Assembly: GCA_050948885.1 (NCBI GenBank)
Contig: JBMNER010000003.1
Location: forward strand, 93,826-157,825
From: Bacilli bacterium
GTDB lineage: Bacteria; Bacillota_I; Bacilli_A; RF39; UBA660
Direction of reading: 5' to 3'
Length of the DNA: 64,000 nt
Shown here: in pieces, positions 7,744-33,936 of the stretch
Position numbering within the stretch: the stretch's first letter is position 1
How the letters are laid out: each line of letters opens with the position of its first letter
The notes under the pieces: generated by a model
Database searches by the model: none
What the model saw: the letters and a program-made list of their open reading frames with translations, nothing else
What the model was told of the DNA's origin: nothing
Position numbers and translations under genes: made by a program

Positions 7744-7820
7744 TGGTCGGGAAGACAGGATTTGAACCTGCAACCCCCTGGTCCCAAACCAGGTGCACTG
7801 CCAAGTTGTGCTACTTCCCG
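7744..7820 (-). tRNA. tRNA-Pro (anticodon TGG)
   Basis: cloverleaf read by hand; starts CGGGAAG, ends CCA. Confidence 0.85.
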
Positions 7821-7823
7821 TAA

Positions 7824-7900
7824 TGGCGCGCCCGATAGGAGTCGAACCCATAACCTTTTGATCCGTAGTCAAACGCTCTATCCAATTGAGCTACGGGCGC
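7824..7900 (-). tRNA. tRNA-Arg (anticodon ACG)
   Basis: GCGCCCGTAGCTCAATTGGATAGAGC...; anticodon loop cuACGga. Confidence 0.85.
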
Positions 7901-7946
7901 ATTATATACATTATTTGATATTATATTATATGCATTTATATAAGAA

Positions 7947-8022
7947 TGGTGGCTTCGGACGGAATCGAACCGCCGACACAAGGATTTTCAGTCCTTTGCT
8001 CTACCGACTGAGCTACGAAGCC
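7947..8022 (-). tRNA. tRNA-Phe (anticodon GAA)
   Basis: GGCTTCGTAGCTCAGTCGGTAGAGC...; anticodon loop cuGAAaa. Confidence 0.85.
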
Positions 8023-8025
8023 TCT

Positions 8026-8100
8026 TGGCGGTTCCGACGGGAATTGAACCCGCGATCTTCTGCGTGACAGGCAGACGTGTTAACCACTACACTACGGAAC
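8026..8100 (-). tRNA. tRNA-Asp (anticodon GTC)
   Basis: acceptor ggttccg/cggaacc; anticodon loop cuGTCac. Confidence 0.8.
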
Positions 8101-8175
8101 CCTCAACTTATTTAATTAATTGCCTTTATAGTATACTAGATATAGGTGGTTTTTGTCAATATGTTATACCTATAA

Positions 8176-13015: not shown

Positions 13016-13092
<77 letters not shown>

Positions 13093-13103
13093 ATATTAAA
13101 CTT

Positions 13104-13196
13104 TGGCGGAGGAAGAGGGATTCGAACCCCCGCGTCGCTTGCGCGACCTCTCGGTTTTCAAGACCGACCCCTTCAACCAGACTTGGGTATTCCTCC
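13104..13196 (-). tRNA. tRNA-Ser (anticodon TGA)
   Basis: long variable arm; anticodon loop cuTGAaa. Confidence 0.8.
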
Positions 13197-13204
13197 ATAT
13201 AATA

Positions 13205-13291
13205 TGGTGCCTGAGGCCGGAATTGAACCGGCACGGGATTGCTCCCTCAGGATTTTAAGTCCTGTGCGTCTACCTGTTCCGCCACTCAGGC
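13205..13291 (-). tRNA. tRNA-Leu (anticodon TAA)
   Basis: long variable arm; anticodon loop cuTAAaa. Confidence 0.8.
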
Positions 13292-13298
13292 ATATAAA

Positions 13299-13374
13299 TG
13301 GTGTCCCGTATAGGACTCGAACCTATGGCCCTTTGATTAAAAGTCAAATGCTCTACCACCTGAGCTAACGGGAC
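13299..13374 (-). tRNA. tRNA-Lys (anticodon TTT)
   Basis: GTCCCGTTAGCTCAGGTGGTAGAGC; anticodon loop cuTTTaa. Confidence 0.85.
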
Positions 13375-13381
13375 AAATAAC

Positions 13382-13456
13382 TGGCTGCCTCGGCTAGATT
13401 CGAACTAGCGCATGTCAGAGTCAAAGTCTGATGCCTTACCGCTTGGCTACGAGGCA
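13382..13456 (-). tRNA. tRNA-Gln (anticodon TTG)
   Basis: U1-A72 start; anticodon loop cuTTGac. Confidence 0.8.
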
Positions 13457-13462
13457 TTAACT

Positions 13463-13545
13463 GGTGGAGAGAGGTGGATTCGAACCACCGAACCCGAAGG
13501 AACAGATTTACAGTCTGTCGCGTTTAGCCACTTCGCTATCTCTCC
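13463..13545 (-). tRNA. tRNA-Tyr (anticodon GTA)
   Basis: long variable arm; anticodon loop cuGTAaa. Confidence 0.8.
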
Positions 13546-13551
13546 ACAAGA

Positions 13552-13627
<76 letters not shown>

Positions 13628-13631
13628 AAAA

Positions 13632-13708
13632 TGGTGGACGATGTAGGACTCGAACCTACGACCCCTTGCTTGTAAGGCAAGTGCTCTAACCAGCTGAGCT
13701 AATCGTCC
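13632..13708 (-). tRNA. tRNA-Val (anticodon TAC)
   Basis: GGACGATTAGCTCAGCTGGTTAGAGC; anticodon loop cuTACaa. Confidence 0.85.
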
Positions 13709-24659: not shown

Positions 24660-25391
24660 TTATTTATGGTTACTAACTAAATTATAAAGTTTTCTAACCT
24701 CTTTAATTGTTAATGGGCGATATTCACCAGGCTTTAACCCCTTTAAATCAAGAAAAGCAATTCTTTCTCTTTTTAGTTTTAAAACCTCGTAACCAAAATA
24801 AGCAAACATCTTTTTAATCTGATGGTAACGGCCTTCGCCAATAGTAACCTGAACAACACTTTTATTATTACGACGATTTATTCTTCTTACCTTAACTTTA
24901 GCTTTGGCGGCCTTCTTATTATCAATTATTATTCCATCTGCCATTGCCTTAATATTCTGAGGCATTACAATACTATTAACTGTCGCCACATATACTTTTT
25001 CAATTTGCTCACGCGGATGCATAATTAAATTAGCCAAAGTGCCATCATTAGTAACAATTATTAGCCCCGTGGTATTATAATCAAGTCTCCCTACTGGATA
25101 CAAGCCTTTTTCATTACCAAAATAATCTAATATCGTTGGGCGACCCCTATCATCAGTTGTGGTACTAAGAACACCTAATGGCTTATAGAATAGAAAATAT
25201 CGTTTAATTGCGATTGGTAATTGGTTCCCTTTAATCTCTATGGTGGCGGTCTTTTTGACTTTTGTCCCTAGTTTAGTTACTATTTCGCCATTTACTTTTA
25301 CACATCCAGCCTGAATTAACTCTTCAGCCTTTCGTCTTGAACAATAACCACGCTGAGCAATTAATTTGTGCAATCGTTCCAACGTTATCAC
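24660..25391 (-). CDS. rluB: rRNA pseudouridine synthase (RluB/RsuA family) with S4 domain
   Basis: S4 motif RLHKLIAQRGYCSRRKAEELI; GRLDYNTTGLIIVTNDG catalytic Asp region. Confidence 0.85.
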   Translation of the reverse strand: MITLERLHKLIAQRGYCSRRKAEELIQAGCVKVNGEIVTKLGTKVKKTATIEIKGNQLPIAIKRYFLFYKPLGVLSTTTDDRGRPTILDYFGNEKGLYPVGRLDYNTTGLIIVTNDGTLANLIMHPREQIEKVYVATVNSIVMPQNIKAMADGIIIDNKKAAKAKVKVRRINRRNNKSVVQVTIGEGRYHQIKKMFAYFGYEVLKLKRERIAFLDLKGLKPGEYRPLTIKEVRKLYNLVSNHK

Positions 25392-26502
25392 CCAATAATA
25401 TTATAACTTTTTTAGTATCTAATAACAATATCCCTAGTGACTTTAGTAACTTAATTAATAAGTGGTTCCGTTTCGCTTTCTTAACGTAAATAACTTGAGA
25501 ATGAATCTTTTTATCGCCTAGATATACATATACATTACCAACCTTATCACTATGTTGATAATTATTTAACTTTTCTATTTCTATTTTAGTGTATACTAAT
25601 TCTTTTTCCTCTTTAGTTAACGGGTAAAAAAAATCATGCTTGATATATAATTTATCTTGATAAAAAGTGTCTTCCACAACCTTAAACCTTTTTTTGTTTA
25701 ATATTTTATAATTACGATATTCTCTAAAACCAAGTTCATGTAAATCCTGGTGGGTTTTCCATTGATTAGGATCGTTTAAAGTCACGGCTATTAAATTGAA
25801 ATTGCCTTTTGTCGCGGTGGTAACTAACGTTTTTAACGCCTTTTCAGTATAACCGTTCTTACCCCCAGTTAAGTATTGATAAGAAAATAACAACTTATTT
25901 TTATTAGTCCAGACATATGTTTTATAATTAGTCCTAACGGTATGTTTTTTTGTTTTAACAATCTTCTGGTATTCATCTTGGGTCATCGCATACTTAGTTA
26001 ATAAAGCCATATCGTAAGCAGTTGAATAATTTTCCGTTTCCTCATCCAAACCATGCGGATTTCTAAAACTAGTATGGTGCATACCTAATTCGTTAGCTTT
26101 TTGGTTCATTAAAACAACAAAGTCCTCCTCCGAACCCGATAAATAATTGGCAATCATCATCGCCGCATCATTCCCGCTTCTTAACATTAAACCATATACT
26201 AAATCCCTTAAGCTTATTTTTTCCCCTACTTCAAGATAAAGATTAGTACCATAGCTTTTTAACACTGTCTCATCAACAGTAACAATATTATCCAGTTTTT
26301 CTGATTCAAGCGCCATAATGGCCGTCATTATTTTGGTTAGGGAGGCGATTAATTTTGGTTTATGAATATTTTGCTCATAAATAATGCGTCCACTATCTGA
26401 GTCCATTAAAATAGCACATTCACTACTAATATCAATGGCTTTTATTTTCAGAACCATAATTAAAAAAAAGAAAATAATAACAATAATATATTTGCGCACC
26501 AA
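25324..26502 (-). CDS. D-alanyl-D-alanine carboxypeptidase (PBP5/DacF-like); the C-terminal roughly 40 aa look out of frame
   Basis: SLTKIMT (SxxK), LRSGND (SxN), signal peptide. Confidence 0.75.
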   Translation of the reverse strand: MVRKYIIVIIFFFLIMVLKIKAIDISSECAILMDSDSGRIIYEQNIHKPKLIASLTKIMTAIMALESEKLDNIVTVDETVLKSYGTNLYLEVGEKISLRDLVYGLMLRSGNDAAMMIANYLSGSEEDFVVLMNQKANELGMHHTSFRNPHGLDEETENYSTAYDMALLTKYAMTQDEYQKIVKTKKHTVRTNYKTYVWTNKNKLLFSYQYLTGGKNGYTEKALKTLVTTATKGNFNLIAVTLNDPNQWKTHQDLHELGFREYRNYKILNKKRFKVVEDTFYQDKLYIKHDFFYPLTKEEKELVYTKIEIEKLNNYQHSDKVGNVYVYLGDKKIHSQVIYVKKAKRNHLLIKLLKSLGILLLDTKKVIILLGDNVGTIAQINCSAWLLFKTKG

Positions 26503-26560
26503 ACCACCTAAAAAAGTTTATGTTTTAAATATTTAAAAAATGAAAAAGGACATTGTCCTT

Positions 26561-27100
26561 TTAATAATTATATAAACCATGTATTTTTTCTCGATCTGTT
26601 TCCGTTAGATCATCCATTACCCAAGTACTATCCCGTTTAGTTAAGGATAAATTTAGGGTATAGGTTACTCTTTCTTTTTCTTTACTCATTTGGCCTAGTC
26701 GATAATCAAAGAATAACGGTTCCGAATAAGTCTTATCATCGCCCATAAACTCATTAGGATGATTATTTAAGTACTGTTGGGCATCATTAATAGTCTTATT
26801 TAAATCATACACTTCTATTTCTGCGGTTACAATCGCATTATCACCATCAATAATTTCATCCTTAATATCATAAGTAAGATTTTGATACTGACGACGCATT
26901 AATTTAGTATAAGCTGTTTTCTGAGAAGTATTTAAAGCGGGTTCACCTTTTACTACATCATTTAATTGATTCATAACTTGTTGATCCAAAGTCTGATAAC
27001 GCGACAAAAAGTTCTCAACCTCGTTTGTTGGTGTCTTAGTTAGTTTCCCACAGCCAGTTATTAAAAAGATTAATAATATTATTGACAAAACCTTTTTCAT
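26561..27100 (-). CDS. lipoprotein of unknown function
   Basis: lipobox LITGCG. Confidence 0.5.
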   Translation of the reverse strand: MKKVLSIILLIFLITGCGKLTKTPTNEVENFLSRYQTLDQQVMNQLNDVVKGEPALNTSQKTAYTKLMRRQYQNLTYDIKDEIIDGDNAIVTAEIEVYDLNKTINDAQQYLNNHPNEFMGDDKTYSEPLFFDYRLGQMSKEKERVTYTLNLSLTKRDSTWVMDDLTETDREKIHGLYNY

Positions 27101-27211
27101 CTTTTCCCTCCTTTGTTCTTATGTTACCAAAAATATGGTAATTTATACGAAAAAGAAGTTAGATAGAAAACATTTTTATCATATTATTAATCACGTTATT
27201 TATTAATTAAA

Positions 27212-28536
27212 TTACGGCCATAAACGTTTTTGATTTCTAAAGACATAAGAAGTCTCCCTAATACTATCCAGCCCTAATAACACCATTAATATTCGCGCTA
27301 GACCGCTCCCAAAACCGCCATGGGGTGGACATCCATATTTAAAAAAATCTAAATAAAAATTAATTGTTTCTAAATTCAAACCCTTTTCTAGCGCCTGTTT
27401 AACTAAAACATCATAACGATGTTCTCTTTGGGAACCCGTGGTAATCTCAACCCCATTCCATAACAGATCAAAACTCTTAGTTAATAATGCGTCCTGTTCA
27501 CTTTTCATATGATAAAAAGGGCGCTTAGTGTAAGGGAAATCAGTAATAAAAACAAATTCATGCTGGTGGTGTTTTTTAATATAGGCTGATAATATCTTCT
27601 GTCCTTCCGCATCTAAGTCCCCCTCAAGATTGAAAGGATTAGAATGCCCCTCTGCGCTCACCAATGTAATGGCATCAAGCCATCTTTATTCGCGGAAATG
27701 GTCGTTTGGGAATGACTAGTTCCCTATTAAATAAGGCTTTTACTTGATTCCCATACTTTTCTTTTACTTTCGTAATGCCCTCAATGAATAATTCTTCCTG
27801 TAACGACCATAATATCTTCTTCGGACTTAATCCAGGATACTTCCGCATCAATACCAGTAAAATCAGTCGCATGAACCGTGGTATGTGAACGATCAGCTCG
27901 GAAAACGGGGCCAATTTCAAAAACTTTCCCAAAACCAGCGGCCATCGCCATTTGTTTATAAAATTGTGGTGATTGGGTTAAATAAGCCTTGGTCCCAAAA
28001 TAATCAACCTCAAAAACCTCCGCCCCTGATTCAGTTGGAGCCCCAGTAATTTTCGGTGAATGAATCTCAATAAAATCATTACTAACAAAGTATTTTCTTA
28101 TTGTATGTTCAAATAAGGTTTGCACTTTAAAAATTAACGCTTTTTCTTGTTGACGAAGATCTAAATAACGCCAGTTTAATCTTACTTCGGCAGAGGTTTC
28201 GGTTTTACCACTAAAATCAATGGGAATTAAATTTTGAGCCTTACATTCTACCTCAATATCATTTACTACTACCTCTAATTTATTTATTGGCCCTTTACTT
28301 TTATTTACCATTCCCTTGACAGATATGACCGATTCTAAAGTAATGTTTTTAACCTTAGTTACTAAATCTTCATTATCCTTTAAGACTAATAATTGGATAT
28401 CGCCACTAAAATCACGCAAGTCAATAAACATAACCGCTTTTAAATTTCTGATTCTCTTAAGCCAGCCTTTTATAATTACTTCTTGATTAAGATAACGATC
28501 CAATTCCTCTATTAATACTCTTTTCATATCTACCAC
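27212..28536 (-). pseudogene. aspS: archaeal/eukaryal-type aspartyl-tRNA synthetase (AspRS2-like) broken into three frames
   Basis: N-terminal and core piece 27781..28536, middle piece ...ELFIEGITKVKEKYGNQVKALFNRELVIPKRPFPRIKMA in frame 2, C-terminal piece DAITLVSAEGH...GGFGSGLARI in frame 3; stops at 27781 and 27675. Confidence 0.55.
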
Positions 28537-29961
28537 CTATTTTTTCTTTATTTCTTCTTTTAATATTTCCGCTGTTAAAGCCGGGTTTGCCTTTCCTTTT
28601 GTTTTTTTCATGACTTGTCCCATAAAATAATCTAAAACATTATCGCGACCTTTTTGATACTCACTTATTAGGTGCTTATTCTCCGTTAAAACTTCTGTCA
28701 CCACCTCTTTAATATAACTATCGTCCTGAATCTGTTTAATATCTAAGGTTTTAATAATATCTATTGGTGATTGTTTTTTCTCTAGGGCTTGATATAACAC
28801 TTCTTTACCTTGTTTGTTAGATATTACTTTACTGTCAACTTGGTTAATTAATTCAATTAACATCAATGGTGTAATATAAAGATCATCCATTGTTAATTCA
28901 TATTTATTAAGGTGACTTAAAATAATACCATTAACCCAGTTTACTATGGTTTTATAGTTATTACTATACTTTAATGTATTTTCAAAAAAATCAGCCACTT
29001 TTTTATCTTTTACCAAAATCGTTGCGTCATACCTTGATAACTCATATTCATTCATATACTTATTAATTCGTTCATACTGCAACATGGGAATAGTTTTTTT
29101 AATAGTGGTCAACCACGACGAAGCAATAGGAAATGCCGGCAAATTAGGGTCAATGAAATACTTATAATCAGTCGCTTCCACTTTCGTTCTCATACTATAG
29201 GTTTTACGCTTATCATCATCAAAACGCCTTGTTTCCATCAGTACTTTTTTACCGGATTTTAACAACTCGGTTTGGCGCTTAACTTCATACTCAATCGCAT
29301 CCTTAACGTTATTAAAGGAATTAATATTTTTTAACTCCACTTTAGTCCCCAGTGTCTCTGCTTCTGATTTAGTAATGGAAATATTAACATCACACCGCAT
29401 TTGTCCCTTATCACTTTTCGCCTCAGAAACATCACAATATAAAAAGACTGATCTTAAAGCTTCTAAAAAAAGGACGGCTTCACGACTACTATTAAGACAA
29501 GGTTCGGTGACGATTTCAATTAAAGGAATGCCCGCGCGATTATAATCTAATAATGAATAATTATCAAAGTGATCTAAGCTTGCTGTATCTTCTTCTAGAT
29601 GTAATTGTTTTATATTAACAGTCTTATCATGACCATCAACATTAATAATTAAAATCCCATTAACACCAAGTGGTTTAGTGTTTTGCGTTATTTGATACCC
29701 TTTCGGTAAATCAGGATAAAAATAATTTTTACGGTCAAAAATAAGTTCATCAGCTATATCACAATTTAAAGCCAGTGCGGTTTTTAAAGCTAATTCGACC
29801 GCCCCTTTATTAGTGACGGGCATAACACCAGGAAAAGCAACATCTACCGGTGAAACATTTATATTCGGTGTTACATCATAAGTATTAGGTGCGGATGAAA
29901 AGACTTTAGACTTTGTTTTTAATTCACAATGAACTTCTAAACCGATTACTACCTTATACAT
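28537..29961 (-). CDS. gatB: Asp-tRNA(Asn)/Glu-tRNA(Gln) amidotransferase subunit B
   Basis: 474 aa with typical GatB N-terminal and C-terminal domains. Confidence 0.95.
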   Translation of the reverse strand: MYKVVIGLEVHCELKTKSKVFSSAPNTYDVTPNINVSPVDVAFPGVMPVTNKGAVELALKTALALNCDIADELIFDRKNYFYPDLPKGYQITQNTKPLGVNGILIINVDGHDKTVNIKQLHLEEDTASLDHFDNYSLLDYNRAGIPLIEIVTEPCLNSSREAVLFLEALRSVFLYCDVSEAKSDKGQMRCDVNISITKSEAETLGTKVELKNINSFNNVKDAIEYEVKRQTELLKSGKKVLMETRRFDDDKRKTYSMRTKVEATDYKYFIDPNLPAFPIASSWLTTIKKTIPMLQYERINKYMNEYELSRYDATILVKDKKVADFFENTLKYSNNYKTIVNWVNGIILSHLNKYELTMDDLYITPLMLIELINQVDSKVISNKQGKEVLYQALEKKQSPIDIIKTLDIKQIQDDSYIKEVVTEVLTENKHLISEYQKGRDNVLDYFMGQVMKKTKGKANPALTAEILKEEIKKK

Positions 29962-31426
29962 CTTCTCGACCCCCTCTCGCGATAATACCTTTTTGGCCTA
30001 ATTTGGCCTCTAGCGCATACGCTATATTTAAAACTATATCATCCTCTAATATACGGCCAGTAATATTAACCCCGATTGGCATTTCATCCACTAAACCACT
30101 AGGAATCGTAATACTAGGAAAGCCACCAAAATTACCTATCAATAAATGATTCTCCGACAATAAAGAAAAATCAGAAAAATCATCAATCTCTTTATTTAAC
30201 AAAGGAGCGATGCCACGAGCAGCGGGTAAAATTAAACCATCATAAATTTTAAATAAGTCATTAATTTGTTCAACAATCATCCGTCTTAACCTTTGAGCAT
30301 TACGAAAGAAATTCGCTTGATTTTCCTTTTGTAAAACATAGCTACCAAAAATAAAACGTTGTTTTATTAGTCGTGAAAAGCCTTTCGTTCTGGCATCAAA
30401 AATAATATCATCAATCGTATTGCCCCGACCTCTATTGCCAAACAAAAGCCCCGTTAAATTAGCATTATTAGAAGTCGCTTCCGCTCCCGAAATAATTAAA
30501 TAAGCTGGATATAAGGCCTTTAATAATTGTTTATCAATAGTAACCGGTTCAACTACCATGCCTAATTCTTCACAATGCTTTATTGCTAGCTTAAAATTAT
30601 TAATAATTGAACTCCATTCTTTATTATCATTATCTAAATCAATAATTTCTTTAATATAACATAGCTTTTTCCCTTTAACATTACCATCTAACATATGCTC
30701 ATAAACTTTATCATCATCTGGTAAAGTCGTCATATCCCTTTCATCATGACCTTTAATAGCATCAACCACATAAGCGGCATCCTTAACGCTTCTGGTCAAA
30801 CACCCAATATGATCTAGTGAACTAGCCAGTGGAAACAGACCAAAACGCGAAATCCGGCCATAAGTCGGTTTAAAGCCAACCACACCACCAAAAGCAGCCG
30901 GTCTTCTAATTGAATTACCAGTATCAGAGCCAAGGGCAAAAGGAACAATGCCCAGAGCCACAGCGGCCGTACTACCAGCTGATGACCCCCCTATTATGCG
31001 TTTTGGATCCCATGGATTATAAACTTTACCGGTGTGGCCAGTTGTGCCTGAACCACCCATCGCGAGTTCATCTAAAACGGTTTTCCCAATCAAAATCGCT
31101 TTTTTCTTTTTTAATTTACTAACTACCGTCGCATCAAAGACCGGACGATACTCTTTTAGAATGTTTGATGAACCCGTAGTTAGAATTCCTTTAGTCGCAA
31201 TATTATCTTTTAAAGCATAAGGAACACCATAAAGAGGATTATCAATATCCCCTTTTAATTGTTTAGCTTCATCACTGGCCGTCTCTATTAAGGTAACAAA
31301 AGCATTATATTGTTGTTGATATTTTTTTGCTCTTTGTAAAGATTCTTCAACTAAAGTCGTTGGGGTTATTTTTTCCCCTTTCAATTGTTTAAAAATATCA
31401 TCAATTGTTAATTTAAAATTACTCAT
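29954..31426 (-). CDS. gatA: Asp-tRNA(Asn)/Glu-tRNA(Gln) amidotransferase subunit A
   Basis: amidase signature GGSSGGS...; 490 aa. Confidence 0.95.
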   Translation of the reverse strand: MSNFKLTIDDIFKQLKGEKITPTTLVEESLQRAKKYQQQYNAFVTLIETASDEAKQLKGDIDNPLYGVPYALKDNIATKGILTTGSSNILKEYRPVFDATVVSKLKKKKAILIGKTVLDELAMGGSGTTGHTGKVYNPWDPKRIIGGSSAGSTAAVALGIVPFALGSDTGNSIRRPAAFGGVVGFKPTYGRISRFGLFPLASSLDHIGCLTRSVKDAAYVVDAIKGHDERDMTTLPDDDKVYEHMLDGNVKGKKLCYIKEIIDLDNDNKEWSSIINNFKLAIKHCEELGMVVEPVTIDKQLLKALYPAYLIISGAEATSNNANLTGLLFGNRGRGNTIDDIIFDARTKGFSRLIKQRFIFGSYVLQKENQANFFRNAQRLRRMIVEQINDLFKIYDGLILPAARGIAPLLNKEIDDFSDFSLLSENHLLIGNFGGFPSITIPSGLVDEMPIGVNITGRILEDDIVLNIAYALEAKLGQKGIIARGGREDV

Positions 31427-31427
31427 T

Positions 31428-31748
31428 TTAGCTAACCACCTTTGGTACCTTTACTTCGTTATTTACTACTTCATTTGTATTACTTAATAACTCACTTGGT
31501 AAAAGACAATCAACTATTTTATCTTCCCTTAAAGTAATGTCCTTTAGAGTAAATGGGAAAGTTAAGGGTGACTTTTCAGCAAGACCATCAATCTTGTTCA
31601 TTAACTGAATATGTTCTAATATTACTTTAAATTTTGCTTGTAGAACATCATATTCTTCATCTTCCATCGCAAACATTAAACTATTCGCACATTTTTTTAA
31701 TAAGTCCTTATCTACTCCCATTAAATAACCTCCTAAGTCACATGCCAA
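31428..31748 (-). CDS. gatC: amidotransferase subunit C
   Basis: 106 aa; REDK...LPSE...VPKVV C-terminal pattern; lies directly upstream of gatA. Confidence 0.7.
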   Translation of the reverse strand: MACDLGGYLMGVDKDLLKKCANSLMFAMEDEEYDVLQAKFKVILEHIQLMNKIDGLAEKSPLTFPFTLKDITLREDKIVDCLLPSELLSNTNEVVNNEVKVPKVVS

Positions 31749-31797
31749 GACAAAATAATGATTCTAATTATCTATAACATTAAATTAATTAACCTAT

Positions 31798-31873
31798 TGG
31801 CGCCTGATGTAGGACTCGAACCTACGACAATCCGGTTAACAGCCGGGTACTCTACCAACTGAGCTAATCAGGC
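31798..31873 (-). tRNA. tRNA-Asn (anticodon GTT)
   Basis: GCCTGATTAGCTCAGTTGGTAGAGT...; anticodon loop cuGTTaa. Confidence 0.85.
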
Positions 31874-31877
31874 AATT

Positions 31878-32170
31878 AAAAAACAGTTTCTCTCCTATAA
31901 AGGGACGAATAACTGTTAACATTCGCGGTGCCACCCAATTTATCATATCTTTAATATGATCACTTAATCGATTCACCAAAATCGCATAACATGATAACGG
32001 GTTACTTCCGGCTTAACCTACTATTGTTTCGATAAGCGACTCCTGAATGTTATTCATACCATCCTTTACTATTAGGTTTACACCATCCCTAACTCTCTAT
32101 TAGTAGTAGTATTACTTCTTTCAATCACAGTCTCTGTAAAAATTATATAATATCTTATTATGTCTGTCAA
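31878..32170 (-). promoter_or_regulatory. T-box riboswitch leader (probable Asn specifier AAC) with its sigma-A promoter and terminator, ahead of tRNA-Asn-gatCAB-aspS
   Basis: minus-strand TTGACA(32165-32170)-17nt-TATAAT(32142-32147); T-box sequence AAATTGGGTGGCACCGCGAAT (plus 31921..31941); terminator aacagtt...aactgtt plus U-run; AGAGAG bulge; GAAUAACA specifier-loop-like string. Confidence 0.6.
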
Positions 32171-32290
32171 CTAAGATTATGTATTTTGATTATCATACAC
32201 TGGATAGTTGTCATTCATTAGGTCTTATAATAATTATTACCACTAAGCCCAACTTTTTGATATAATATTATTAAGTAAGGGAGTGACAAT

Positions 32291-33280
32291 GTGAAAAAAT
32301 TAATATCAGGCATAAAACCAACCGGCCAATTAACACTTGGAAATTATATTGGTGCCATAAAACAATTTGTTAAATTACAAAATGAATATGAGTCATTTAT
32401 TTTTGTCGCTGATTTACACGCTATAACTACGCCCCAAAATAAAAAACAACTACAAAAGTTAATTAAAGAATTGGTCGCTCTATATTTAGCTTGTGGTCTT
32501 GATTCTTCTAAAAATACTATCTATTTACAATCCGAAAATCCATATCATGCTCATTTATCCTGGGTCTTAAATTGCCACACCTATCTTGGTGAGTTAAACC
32601 GCATGACCCAATTTAAAGATAAAGCCGCCAAATTAAAAAAAGAGGGAATTCCCGCGGGTCTTTATACCTATCCCGTTTTAATGGCTAGTGATATCTTGTT
32701 ATATGATGCTGATGTGGTACCGGTTGGTGATGATCAAAAACAACATGTGGAAATAACTCGTCGCCTCGCCGAACGTTTTAATAATAAATATGGGTCTACA
32801 TTTAAAATACCTGATGTCATTATTACCTCAACTGGCGCCCGTATAAAAGATTTACAAGATCCGACTAAGAAGATGGATAAATCAAGCGTTTCTGATAAAG
32901 GGGTCATTTTAATGCTAGATCCAATCGAAAGTATTAAACAAAAAATAAGGCGAGCCGTTACTGATAATGATTCTATCATTAAATTTGATGAAAAAAATAA
33001 GCCTGGCATTTCTAACCTAATTAATATTTATGCCAACCTAAAAGATATTAGCATTAAGGAAACTGAAGAGGAGTTTAAAAAGGCCAATTATGGCGATTTT
33101 AAAGAAGCCGTGGCGAATCTTGTTACCGAAGTATTAAAACCAATCCAAGATAAATACCACCAAATAATAAATTCTAATATTATTGATGATATTTTAAATC
33201 AGGGTATAGAAAAAGCCCTCCCCATAGCTAAAGCTAAATGCGAATACGTAAGTAAGAAAATAGGTTTAGGCAGGCCCTAA
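32291..33280 (+). CDS. trpS: tryptophanyl-tRNA synthetase
   Basis: HIGH-like TGQLTLGNYIG and KMSKS-like KMDKS motifs; GTG start with RBS aagggag; extended -10 promoter TGaTATAAT at 32258..32266. Confidence 0.95.
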   Translation: MKKLISGIKPTGQLTLGNYIGAIKQFVKLQNEYESFIFVADLHAITTPQNKKQLQKLIKELVALYLACGLDSSKNTIYLQSENPYHAHLSWVLNCHTYLGELNRMTQFKDKAAKLKKEGIPAGLYTYPVLMASDILLYDADVVPVGDDQKQHVEITRRLAERFNNKYGSTFKIPDVIITSTGARIKDLQDPTKKMDKSSVSDKGVILMLDPIESIKQKIRRAVTDNDSIIKFDEKNKPGISNLINIYANLKDISIKETEEEFKKANYGDFKEAVANLVTEVLKPIQDKYHQIINSNIIDDILNQGIEKALPIAKAKCEYVSKKIGLGRP

Positions 33281-33936
33281 ACCCATTTTCTTAAATATGA
33301 TAATTTAATTAAATTATATAAAGCAAAATGTTGATTAGTCCACTCCTTATTTAACATCCTTTTCATTCTTTTATACATAAAATCAACATCATCGTTCTGA
33401 TCATTATACCATTCATTATATAAATACTTTAACTTATCAATATTCTTTTCCTGATATATATGGTCAAACTCATGACTGAGGTGTTTTTTTATTTTTCTTT
33501 CTAACCGGGTCATAAACACATCTTTTTTTACTTCTTTTTTAATTACTTTATATTCTAATATCGTTATTGTCATCTTTGTTGCCATATTAATTATCTCTGT
33601 CTCTTCCTCAATTAAAAAAGCACTTTTAAAAATACTTAGTCCTTTATTATCAAATTCCACCGCTACCGCACGAAAACCATCGGTAAAGATGCCCGCGTAA
33701 TCGATATGTGAGCCAGACTTACGATTAAATAATTCTGTTTTTTGATATAACAAAGTTAATAATTCCTTAGAAACTTTGATTTTATAATTATATATGTCAA
33801 AAAAGGTATTAGAATCCACCCTTAAAATAGATATCTTCTTGATATGCTCAATATCATCAGTTGGTTGCCACTCGTAGAATTCATAAATATAAGGATTATC
33901 AGTCCAATTTAATAATACATCATAAATATAACTCAT
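33277..33936 (-). CDS. hypothetical protein
   Basis: ORF only. Confidence 0.35.
   Translation of the reverse strand: MSYIYDVLLNWTDNPYIYEFYEWQPTDDIEHIKKISILRVDSNTFFDIYNYKIKVSKELLTLLYQKTELFNRKSGSHIDYAGIFTDGFRAVAVEFDNKGLSIFKSAFLIEEETEIINMATKMTITILEYKVIKKEVKKDVFMTRLERKIKKHLSHEFDHIYQEKNIDKLKYLYNEWYNDQNDDVDFMYKRMKRMLNKEWTNQHFALYNLIKLSYLRKWV

Follow-up and report, generated by a model that had tools for sequence, protein, structure and literature searches.

A stretch of 64,000 nucleotides (hereafter the window) from a Bacilli bacterium assembly (GTDB lineage Bacteria; Bacillota_I; Bacilli_A; RF39; UBA660; GCA_050948885.1, contig JBMNER010000003.1, positions 93,826 to 157,825) carries on its minus strand a T-box leader that is followed directly by a tRNA-Asn(GUU) gene and then by gatC, gatA, gatB and an archaeal-type aspS. 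Leader, tRNA gene and protein-coding genes probably form a single transcription unit, which would be read from a sigma-A promoter under the control of a class I transcriptional T-box riboswitch specific for tRNA-Asn. The pairing of an Asn T-box with a tRNA-Asn gene is conserved in at least 80 species of uncultured gut and rumen bacteria. The locus had been singled out by a reading of the letters alone, without database searches (hereafter the sequence-only reading), whose proposals are taken up below where the evidence bears on them.

Anatomy of the leader

All leader elements lie on the minus strand. The promoter is of the sigma-A type (32142–32170), with TTGACA at 32170–32165, a 17-nt spacer and TATAAT at 32147–32142, a consensus match of 12 out of 12. 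The sequence-only reading had described it as perfect; a consensus scan of 8 kb (25500–33500) placed it in the same position and returned no other site with 12 matches. Starting 5 nt 3' of the −10 hexamer, the Rfam T-box model RF00230 matched the strand over its full length (31898–32137; model positions 1–219 of 219), covering Stem I, Stem II, IIA/B, Stem III and the antiterminator. The score in this search, which the sequence-only reading had recommended, was 136.1 bits (E 3.9e-30), far over the gathering score of 93. In the alignment to this model, Stem I contains the AGAGAG motif at 32098–32093 and a distal loop of sequence GGUGUAA. The 3' side of the specifier loop, GAAUAACA (32048–32055), consists of 8 unpaired bases followed by a UGAA/UUCA closing helix, and holds the Asn codon AAC at 32051–32049 with a purine, A, next to it at 32048.

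The T-box sequence AAAUUGGGUGGCACCGCGAAU occupies 31941–31921, and the UGGC of its bulge (31930–31933) is complementary to the 3' end of tRNA-Asn, G73-C-C-A. Behind it lies the terminator (31878–31915), composed of a helix (31915–31884) and the run UUUUUU (31883–31878); the hairpin appeared in the minimum-free-energy fold of a 50-nt segment at −10.5 kcal/mol, with the six U residues next to it. The 5' arm of this terminator is the strand that the Rfam alignment pairs as the 3' strand of the antiterminator, and the two folds are thus mutually exclusive. The AGAGAG bulge, the T-box sequence and the hairpin with its U-run had all been located correctly in the sequence-only reading. Every sequence-level trait of the T-box family that was tested (model score, specifier loop with its purine, UGGN bulge, terminator and antiterminator) was found in the leader. 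A candidate internal promoter lying over the T-box terminator (TTAACA ... TTTATA) was rejected, its spacer being 12 nt long and the consensus scan being silent there.

The tRNA gene and the genes behind it

The tRNA-Asn(GUU) gene (31798–31873, minus strand) was predicted by ARAGORN and matched RF00005 with 68.2 bits; it has G1-C72, the discriminator G73 and an encoded CCA. It starts 4 nt past the U-run of the terminator, in keeping with the few nucleotides given in the sequence-only reading. Its anticodon GUU is complementary to the specifier AAC, and its GCCA end to the UGGC of the bulge. Between this gene and gatC lies a spacer of 76 nt (31722–31797, minus strand), which is unstructured, folding no better than shuffled sequence (z = +0.30), and which carries a GGAGG Shine-Dalgarno sequence ahead of the ATG. 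From 32141 to 31722 on the minus strand, a scan limited to consensus matching returned no promoter-like site of 9 or more matches out of 12, and consensus scanning together with folding revealed no terminator-like site other than that of the T-box.

The four protein-coding genes are on the same strand and closely spaced. GatC (31428–31721) matched TIGR00135 over its full length with 39.6 bits (cut-off 47.1), its identity being supported also by position and synteny. The start codon of gatA (29954–31426; TIGR00132, full length, 450 bits, cut-off 481.1) lies 1 nt past the gatC stop, and gatB (28537–29961; NF004012, 599.7 bits, cut-off 338) overlaps gatA by 8 nt. The fourth gene, aspS (27212–28527), belongs to the archaeal-type aspartate--tRNA(Asn) ligase family (NF003483) and has a broken frame. 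The identities, order and tight junctions proposed by the sequence-only reading were borne out. The break in aspS had been overlooked there: the gene is not an intact open reading frame of NF003483 or TIGR00458 but is split over three reading frames, with an N-terminal fragment that scored 267.8 bits and a C-terminal one that scored 175.4 bits against NF003483. No asnS, second aspS or second gatCAB was found within the 64-kb window, which says little about the whole genome.

Proposed mechanism

Taken together, the following mode of action is envisaged for the window locus. While tRNA-Asn is mostly charged, the terminator helix and its six U residues would form and transcription would end 4 nt short of the tRNA gene. 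Uncharged tRNA-Asn would pair through GUU with the specifier AAC and through its free GCCA end with the UGGC bulge, stabilizing the antiterminator, upon which RNA polymerase would proceed through the tRNA-Asn gene into gatC, gatA, gatB and aspS. From this precursor the tRNA would be excised, its 5' end by RNase P and, given the encoded CCA, its 3' end presumably by an endonucleolytic cut and exonucleolytic trimming; in Bacillus subtilis, RNase Z is not known to act on tRNAs with an encoded CCA. Both read-through and tRNA processing are suggested by the anatomy of the locus and its conservation. The remainder of the RNA would serve as mRNA for the route to Asn-tRNA-Asn via a non-discriminating AspRS (ND-AspRS) and GatCAB. 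The operon would in this way supply tRNA-Asn, ND-AspRS and GatCAB together, that is, all three components of Asn transamidation. Moreover, each read-through event would make new, initially uncharged ligand, a positive feed-forward expected to sharpen induction.

Conservation among relatives

Representative genomes of GTDB, one per species, were scanned for a T-box core followed 40–70 nt later by a tRNA D-arm. The pattern was limited to one D-arm type (TAGCTCAG..GG.AGAG), and loci for other amino acids may have been missed. The counts are lower bounds: 119 loci were listed, and the numbers given below for relatives, designated by L numbers where needed, are those among the matches listed. A T-box motif followed by tRNA-Asn(GUU) was observed in at least 81 loci from 80 assemblies, all of them gut or rumen metagenome-assembled genomes (MAGs) labelled Bacilli, Tenericutes, Mollicutes, Erysipelotrichaceae or other taxa, the last of these labels probably reflecting misbinning or mislabelling. 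In these loci the tRNA-Asn gene starts 49–75 nt past the start of the GGUGGNACC motif. Matches to the pattern next to tRNA-Phe, -Thr, -Lys or -His, in Sphingobacterium and in MAGs, some labelled Muribaculaceae, actinobacterial or Gammaproteobacteria, were regarded as false positives: the nine such loci scanned with Rfam gave no T-box match and were discarded, as were, by analogy, the remaining Sphingobacterium loci. The conservation of the unit in at least 80 species-level genomes indicates selection rather than a chance event in a single genome.

The specificity determinants are conserved as well. The RF00230 threshold was passed by 18 of 20 sampled leaders, and in 79 aligned leaders the string GAA-N-AAC is invariant, N being U, A or G; the base after AAC is A in most of them and G in 3. 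The Asn specifier that the sequence-only reading had considered probable is therefore common to all 79 homologues. In an unguided RNAalifold analysis of the same leaders the helices listed above reappeared (Stem I, Stem II, IIA/B, Stem III, antiterminator); of their 39 base pairs, 30 show compensatory changes, and the specifier bases stay unpaired. The fourth base of UGGN in 77 first-copy leaders is C (34) or U (43), both of which pair with G73, and G73 with an encoded CCA was found in all linked tRNA-Asn copies predicted to end in CCA (164 of 164). Hence, the assignment of the leader to Asn is as firm as sequence analysis allows.

What follows the T-box varies within limits. Tandem tRNA-Asn genes are frequent: among listed loci with more than 100 nt past the last tRNA, 12 contain one copy, 43 two, 7 three and 8 four. 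In the 68 listed loci with at least 450 nt of downstream DNA, the next genes are gatC/gatA in 62, pgi and then gatCAB in 1, an AsnRS-like gene in 4, and tRNA-Glu with unrelated genes in 1. The only one of the four AsnRS-like genes tested, that of L010, is asnS (NF003037, 621 bits). An AspS-like fourth gene is present in 33 of the 35 listed loci with enough DNA; in L047, the one example tested, this gene is an aspS of the bacterial type (714 bits). Judging from these annotations, the T-box and tRNA-Asn pair is the constant part of the unit and the genes behind it are whichever enzyme set is predicted to make Asn-tRNA-Asn.

The next relatives after the conspecific contigs (L003/L004, AspS 64% identical) have the same TTGACA-17-TATAAT promoter, a T-box scoring 142.5 bits, two tRNA-Asn genes, gatC, gatA, gatB and aspS, and also share with the window the two genes beyond aspS. 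The next closest aspS homologues (L005/L006, 53–55% identical) are solitary genes without a T-box, which rules out that aspS is always part of such an operon. Two contigs of the MAG Lapin-012__bin34 (L011 and L093) each end in tRNA-Glu, T-box and tRNA-Asn; they may represent two copies of the unit in one genome that broke the assembly.

Some relatives have more elaborate arrangements upstream. In 29 listed loci Stem I of the Asn T-box is preceded, at a distance of about 25 nt, by a tRNA-Glu(UUC) gene, which in 25 of them has tRNA-Ile(GAU) ahead of it (e.g. L075:4086–4560); in L122 the upstream pair is Asn-Glu. No promoter-like site was found between tRNA-Glu and Stem I in the loci preceded by tRNA-Glu, and in L075, a complete chromosome (OZ007022.1), the only promoter-like site is located upstream of tRNA-Ile. 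In loci of this type the T-box appears to be a conditional gate inside a tRNA operon.

Conflicting evidence and alternative explanations

Several observations weigh against the interpretation of the window locus as a single operon regulated by tRNA-Asn for the synthesis of Asn-tRNA-Asn. First, a terminator-like hairpin stands behind the tRNA in many relatives: between the last tRNA and gatC or asnS, 48 of the 68 listed loci (including L016, L021 (= L003:6895–6925), L010 and L012) have a strong hairpin with U5–U8, located 10–15 nt past the last tRNA and 5–20 nt before the Shine-Dalgarno sequence, with folding energies of −7.7 to −17.5 kcal/mol. In about 15 further listed loci UCUUUUUUUUG lies right behind the CCA of the tRNA. 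Where the hairpin is present, RNA polymerase has to pass another terminator-like site before it reaches the enzyme genes, and regulation may chiefly concern the tRNA. Second, a run of five or more U after the terminator helix was present in 44 and absent in 38 of 82 leaders (listed loci and window); those without it (L010, L036, L092, L072, L012, L016 and about 30 more) have a helix of 7–9 bp followed by an A-rich tail or one of interrupted U. The switching mechanism may consequently not be the same across the whole family. Third, the GatC and GatA matches, while full-length, fall under the curated NCBIfam cut-offs, and aspS is frameshifted twice in this assembly. Fourth, the window tRNA-Asn lacks the U1-A72 pair that is taken as a criterion for substrates of bacterial GatCAB. 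Finally, the window species is known solely from MAGs, every relative found is likewise an uncultured MAG, and the continuous transcript is predicted from sequence.

The hairpins suggest an alternative in which the conserved regulated product is the tRNA. The unit would then comprise promoter, T-box, one or more tRNA-Asn genes and terminator, with the enzymes receiving a small constitutive read-through and the T-box acting essentially on the tRNA gene and weakly as an operon regulator. Besides the hairpins and the UCUUUUUUUUG elements, the variable downstream genes (gatCAB with archaeal or bacterial aspS, asnS, pgi with gatCAB) behind a constant T-box/tRNA-Asn pair are in line with this, as are L025 (3340–3914) and L051, in which a single tRNA-Asn has a complete Asn T-box on either side (119.1 and 137.4 bits), the second one lying between the tRNA and gatCAB. 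However, neither a hairpin with a U-run nor UCUUUUUUUUG is present in the 76-nt spacer of the window, and genes for the formation of Asn-tRNA are linked to the pair in 67 of the 68 listed loci. Furthermore, in relatives the stretch from the hairpin to the Shine-Dalgarno sequence is too short to hold a promoter, which means that the enzyme genes still depend on transcription through the T-box. Control of the tRNA as the essential output is thus unlikely as an explanation of the window, and the hairpin of the relatives looks like an internal attenuator, which would favour tRNA over enzyme output.

A different possibility is that the tRNA functions mainly as a punctuation mark for RNA processing and stability, where cleavage by RNase P at the 5' end of the tRNA would free the message from the structured leader and its bound tRNA, and the embedded tRNA would provide a barrier to 3'-to-5' decay, supply of tRNA being secondary. 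An identical tRNA-Asn gene exists in an ordinary tRNA cluster (see below), so supply does not strictly depend on the gated copy, and the layout is seen again at pheST, with tRNA-Phe, and at an alaS-like gene, with a tRNA-like element, which suggests a general structural role. On the other hand, punctuation alone would hardly account for the two to four tandem copies in most relatives; in the Asn and Phe loci the tRNA matches the specifier (Asn/AAC, Phe/UUC); and all linked tRNA-Asn copies keep standard tRNA features together with an encoded CCA. We consider punctuation as the principal function improbable.

The state of aspS raises the further question of whether the operon is decaying in this strain, with aspS a true pseudogene and T-box, tRNA and gatCAB no longer serving the synthesis of Asn-tRNA. 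The frame is broken by two 1-nt insertions 127 nt apart, one of C at 27805 and one of T at 27678/27677, and the operon as written is unable to make full-length AspRS. Three independent conspecific contigs (L001, L002 and L127), 99.2–99.6% identical to the window over 24742–33854, encode an intact AspS of 437 amino acids (protein P0001), and the two insertions are the only indels in these 9.1 kb. A fragment of 248 amino acids (MGI6309521.1) was found at NCBI in the accession series that holds the exact GatB and TrpS of the window, next in accession to the GatB (MGI6309522.1); fragment and window presumably come from the same MAG. Against decay, aspS outside the insertions matches the intact alleles at about 99% identity without further degradation, and leader, tRNA and gatCAB are intact. 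In addition, the same protein series has a contig of 1.09 Mb, taken as a sign of a long-read assembly, in which isolated 1-nt indels are a common error. The breakage may reflect a recent pseudogene or an assembly error, and a wholesale loss of function of the operon has little probability. A further AspS homologue, P0002, is the same as P0001 for about the first 200 residues and then diverges sharply, being either a recombinant allele or a chimeric assembly.

Lastly, that the tRNA is an independent unit beside the leader, or the leader a relic, with tRNA and gatCAB read from promoters of their own, is most improbable. In its favour, the region is AT-rich, with weak −10-like strings such as TGTTATAGA in the tRNA-gatC spacer and promoter-like matches at chance frequency; against it, the gap from U-run to tRNA is a mere 4 nt, the scan of 32141–31722 was empty, the tight T-box–tRNA spacing holds in at least 81 loci, and covariation and purifying selection on the leaders show that they are not relics. 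A promoter separating the tRNA from gatC, which the sequence-only reading had named among the observations that would refute it, was found neither in the window nor at more than chance level in relatives, in whose tRNA-gatC spacers promoter-like sites occurred in 11 of 68 cases as compared with 12.9 ± 3.1 in shuffled spacers.

The acceptor stem and the published GatCAB rule

The mismatch between the tRNA and its predicted amidotransferase deserves closer attention. According to Bailly et al. (2006), bacterial tRNA-Asn has a conserved U1-A72 pair, which serves bacterial GatCAB as a key element; with G1-C72, the pair typical of archaeal tRNA-Asn, the efficiency of amidation by the bacterial enzyme was about 100-fold lower. 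G1-C72 is found in the window tRNA-Asn, in the second copy described below, and in each of the 164 linked copies with a predicted CCA end. By comparison, the tRNA-Gln of the window (13382–13456) has the expected U1-A72. The U20A anti-determinant, as read from the sequences, is present in the tRNA-Asp of the window and absent from its tRNA-Asn. Either the GatCAB of this lineage would have different requirements, or transamidation of the G1-C72 tRNA-Asn would be inefficient.

A second tRNA-Asn gene and the supply of tRNA

The exact 76-nt tRNA-Asn sequence was matched at two places in metagenome contigs, namely the same locus in a conspecific contig (L127) and a second contig, L128. In the latter it lies (L128:303–378) within a cluster Ile(GAU)-Asn-Glu(UUC)-Ser(GCU) (L128:131–461) that ends in a hairpin with a U-run and has no T-box. 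The L128 contig and L001 derive from the same JGI sample, and proteins of L128 and of the window occur in the same NCBI accession series (MGI6309674/678 versus MGI6309521/522/525), likewise in the series MFA5459 and MDD382; a fourth series is shared by one of the L128 proteins, and a contig of 1.09 Mb belongs to both sets. The shared series indicate that one genome has both a constitutive-looking and an inducible copy of tRNA-Asn. The gated gene as the only copy of the genome is thereby ruled out for the window species, and with a second, ungated gene the leader would add an inducible copy and not control the whole supply of tRNA-Asn.

The situation may be different in other species. The cluster is Ile-Asn-Glu-Ser in the window species versus Ile-Glu, without an Asn copy, in the approximately 29 species with a T-box inside a tRNA operon, and in these all of the cell's tRNA-Asn may be made under the control of the T-box, in response to charging. 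Should this be so, the G1-C72 pair would imply recognition by GatCAB unlike the published bacterial U1-A72 rule. The window itself contains two further tRNA clusters on the minus strand, 7744–8101 (Asp-Phe-Arg-Pro) and 13016–13708 (Val-Thr-Tyr-Gln-Lys-Leu-Ser-Met), with 12 tRNA genes, none of them for Asn.

Relation to known systems

T-boxes have been described as sensors of tRNA charging over genes for aminoacyl-tRNA synthetases, amino-acid biosynthesis and transporters. The leader in the window shares with the T-box family (RF00230; Bacillus subtilis tyrS, glyQS) the specifier loop with its purine, the AG bulge, the distal loop, the UGGN bulge and the terminator/antiterminator pair, and differs from leaders of the tyrS and glyQS type in that the first gene past the terminator is not protein-coding but encodes the sensed tRNA. 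Co-transcripts of tRNA and mRNA are known in their own right, an example being thrU-tyrU-glyT-thrT-tufB of Escherichia coli, which has in common with the window tRNA genes 5' of a translation-related gene and, as proposed for the window, co-transcription and processing by RNase P and at the 3' end. Unlike the locus reported here, however, the tufB operon is not known to have a riboswitch, nor are its tRNAs known to be regulatory ligands of their own transcript.

The nearest counterpart in the literature is an operon of Clostridium acetobutylicum, in which an Asn T-box controls the aspS/gatCAB genes for transamidation (Saad et al. 2013, as summarised in PMC4052509). As far as that summary goes, the two loci have in common an Asn (AAC) T-box over genes for GatCAB and an AspRS that is non-discriminating, in the window by prediction. 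No tRNA gene is reported for the Clostridium operon in the work of Saad and colleagues from 2012 and 2013, and none is mentioned in the summarised account. Its leader reportedly has overlapping AAC and GAA codons and binds two tRNAs. In the window, by contrast, GAA and AAC are separated by a U within GAAUAACA.

The Asn-transamidosome, a complex of ND-AspRS, tRNA-Asn and GatCAB, is known from Thermus. The window operon has genes for all three predicted partners, and the tRNA-Asn there has G1-C72 and not the U1-A72 preferred by bacterial GatCAB. The complex has been described in Helicobacter pylori (PMC3367201). In earlier work, no T-boxes were found upstream of amidotransferase genes (Wels 2008). 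No description of a tRNA gene inserted between a T-box and the structural genes behind it was found in the literature searched, which included Wels 2008, TBDB 2020, a T-box review of 2020, Sun 2013, and Raina & Ibba 2014. The sequence-only reading had called such a placement unusual, which holds with respect to the searchable literature but not within this lineage, where at least 81 loci make it the rule. Provisionally, what is new is the combination, a T-box that gates the gene of its own ligand; an earlier description may exist.

If correct, the proposed unit would have a sensor that also controls the synthesis of the tRNA it senses. The regulatory loop would thereby be closed, new uncharged tRNA reinforcing antitermination, and production of the tRNA would be coupled stoichiometrically to that of the enzymes for which it is the scaffold in making Asn. 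Loci of this kind could serve as test cases for regulation at the level of tRNA, and not only of its charging, in reduced genomes, for maturation of a tRNA from a riboswitch-mRNA precursor, and for the action of GatCAB on a G1-C72 tRNA-Asn.

Similar arrangements for other amino acids

The layout is not confined to Asn. A T-box with the specifier UUC (GAAUUUCA), followed by tRNA-Phe(GAA) and pheS-pheT, was observed in at least five MAGs (L080, 3507–3802; L126; L031; L035; L046); these five T-boxes matched RF00230 over its full length with 59–88 bits, under the threshold of 93. In a Candidatus Onthoplasma MAG (L066, 3471–3808) a T-box of 105 bits is followed by tRNA-Phe. Two Ruminococcus MAGs (L050, 7010–7339; L008, 1759–2125) have T-boxes of 94.7 and 85.9 bits, respectively, each followed by a tRNA-like element of 98–131 nt, and the gene after this element resembles alaS by eye (886 amino acids in L008). 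Tentatively, T-boxes that gate the tRNA genes of their own ligands could be a general and so far undescribed design in uncultured gut and rumen Bacilli, extending to Asn, Phe and possibly Ala.

The divergent trpS gene

The intergenic region of the leader is shared with trpS (32291–33280, plus strand), which is transcribed in the opposite direction. The Rfam scan returned no T-box match 5' of trpS. This agrees with the sequence-only reading, which had given this gene an 18-nt leader and an extended −10 element without T-box control: a TTACCA-18-TG-n-TATAAT promoter ends at 32266, from which a leader of about 18 nt follows, and the GTG start codon is at 32291.

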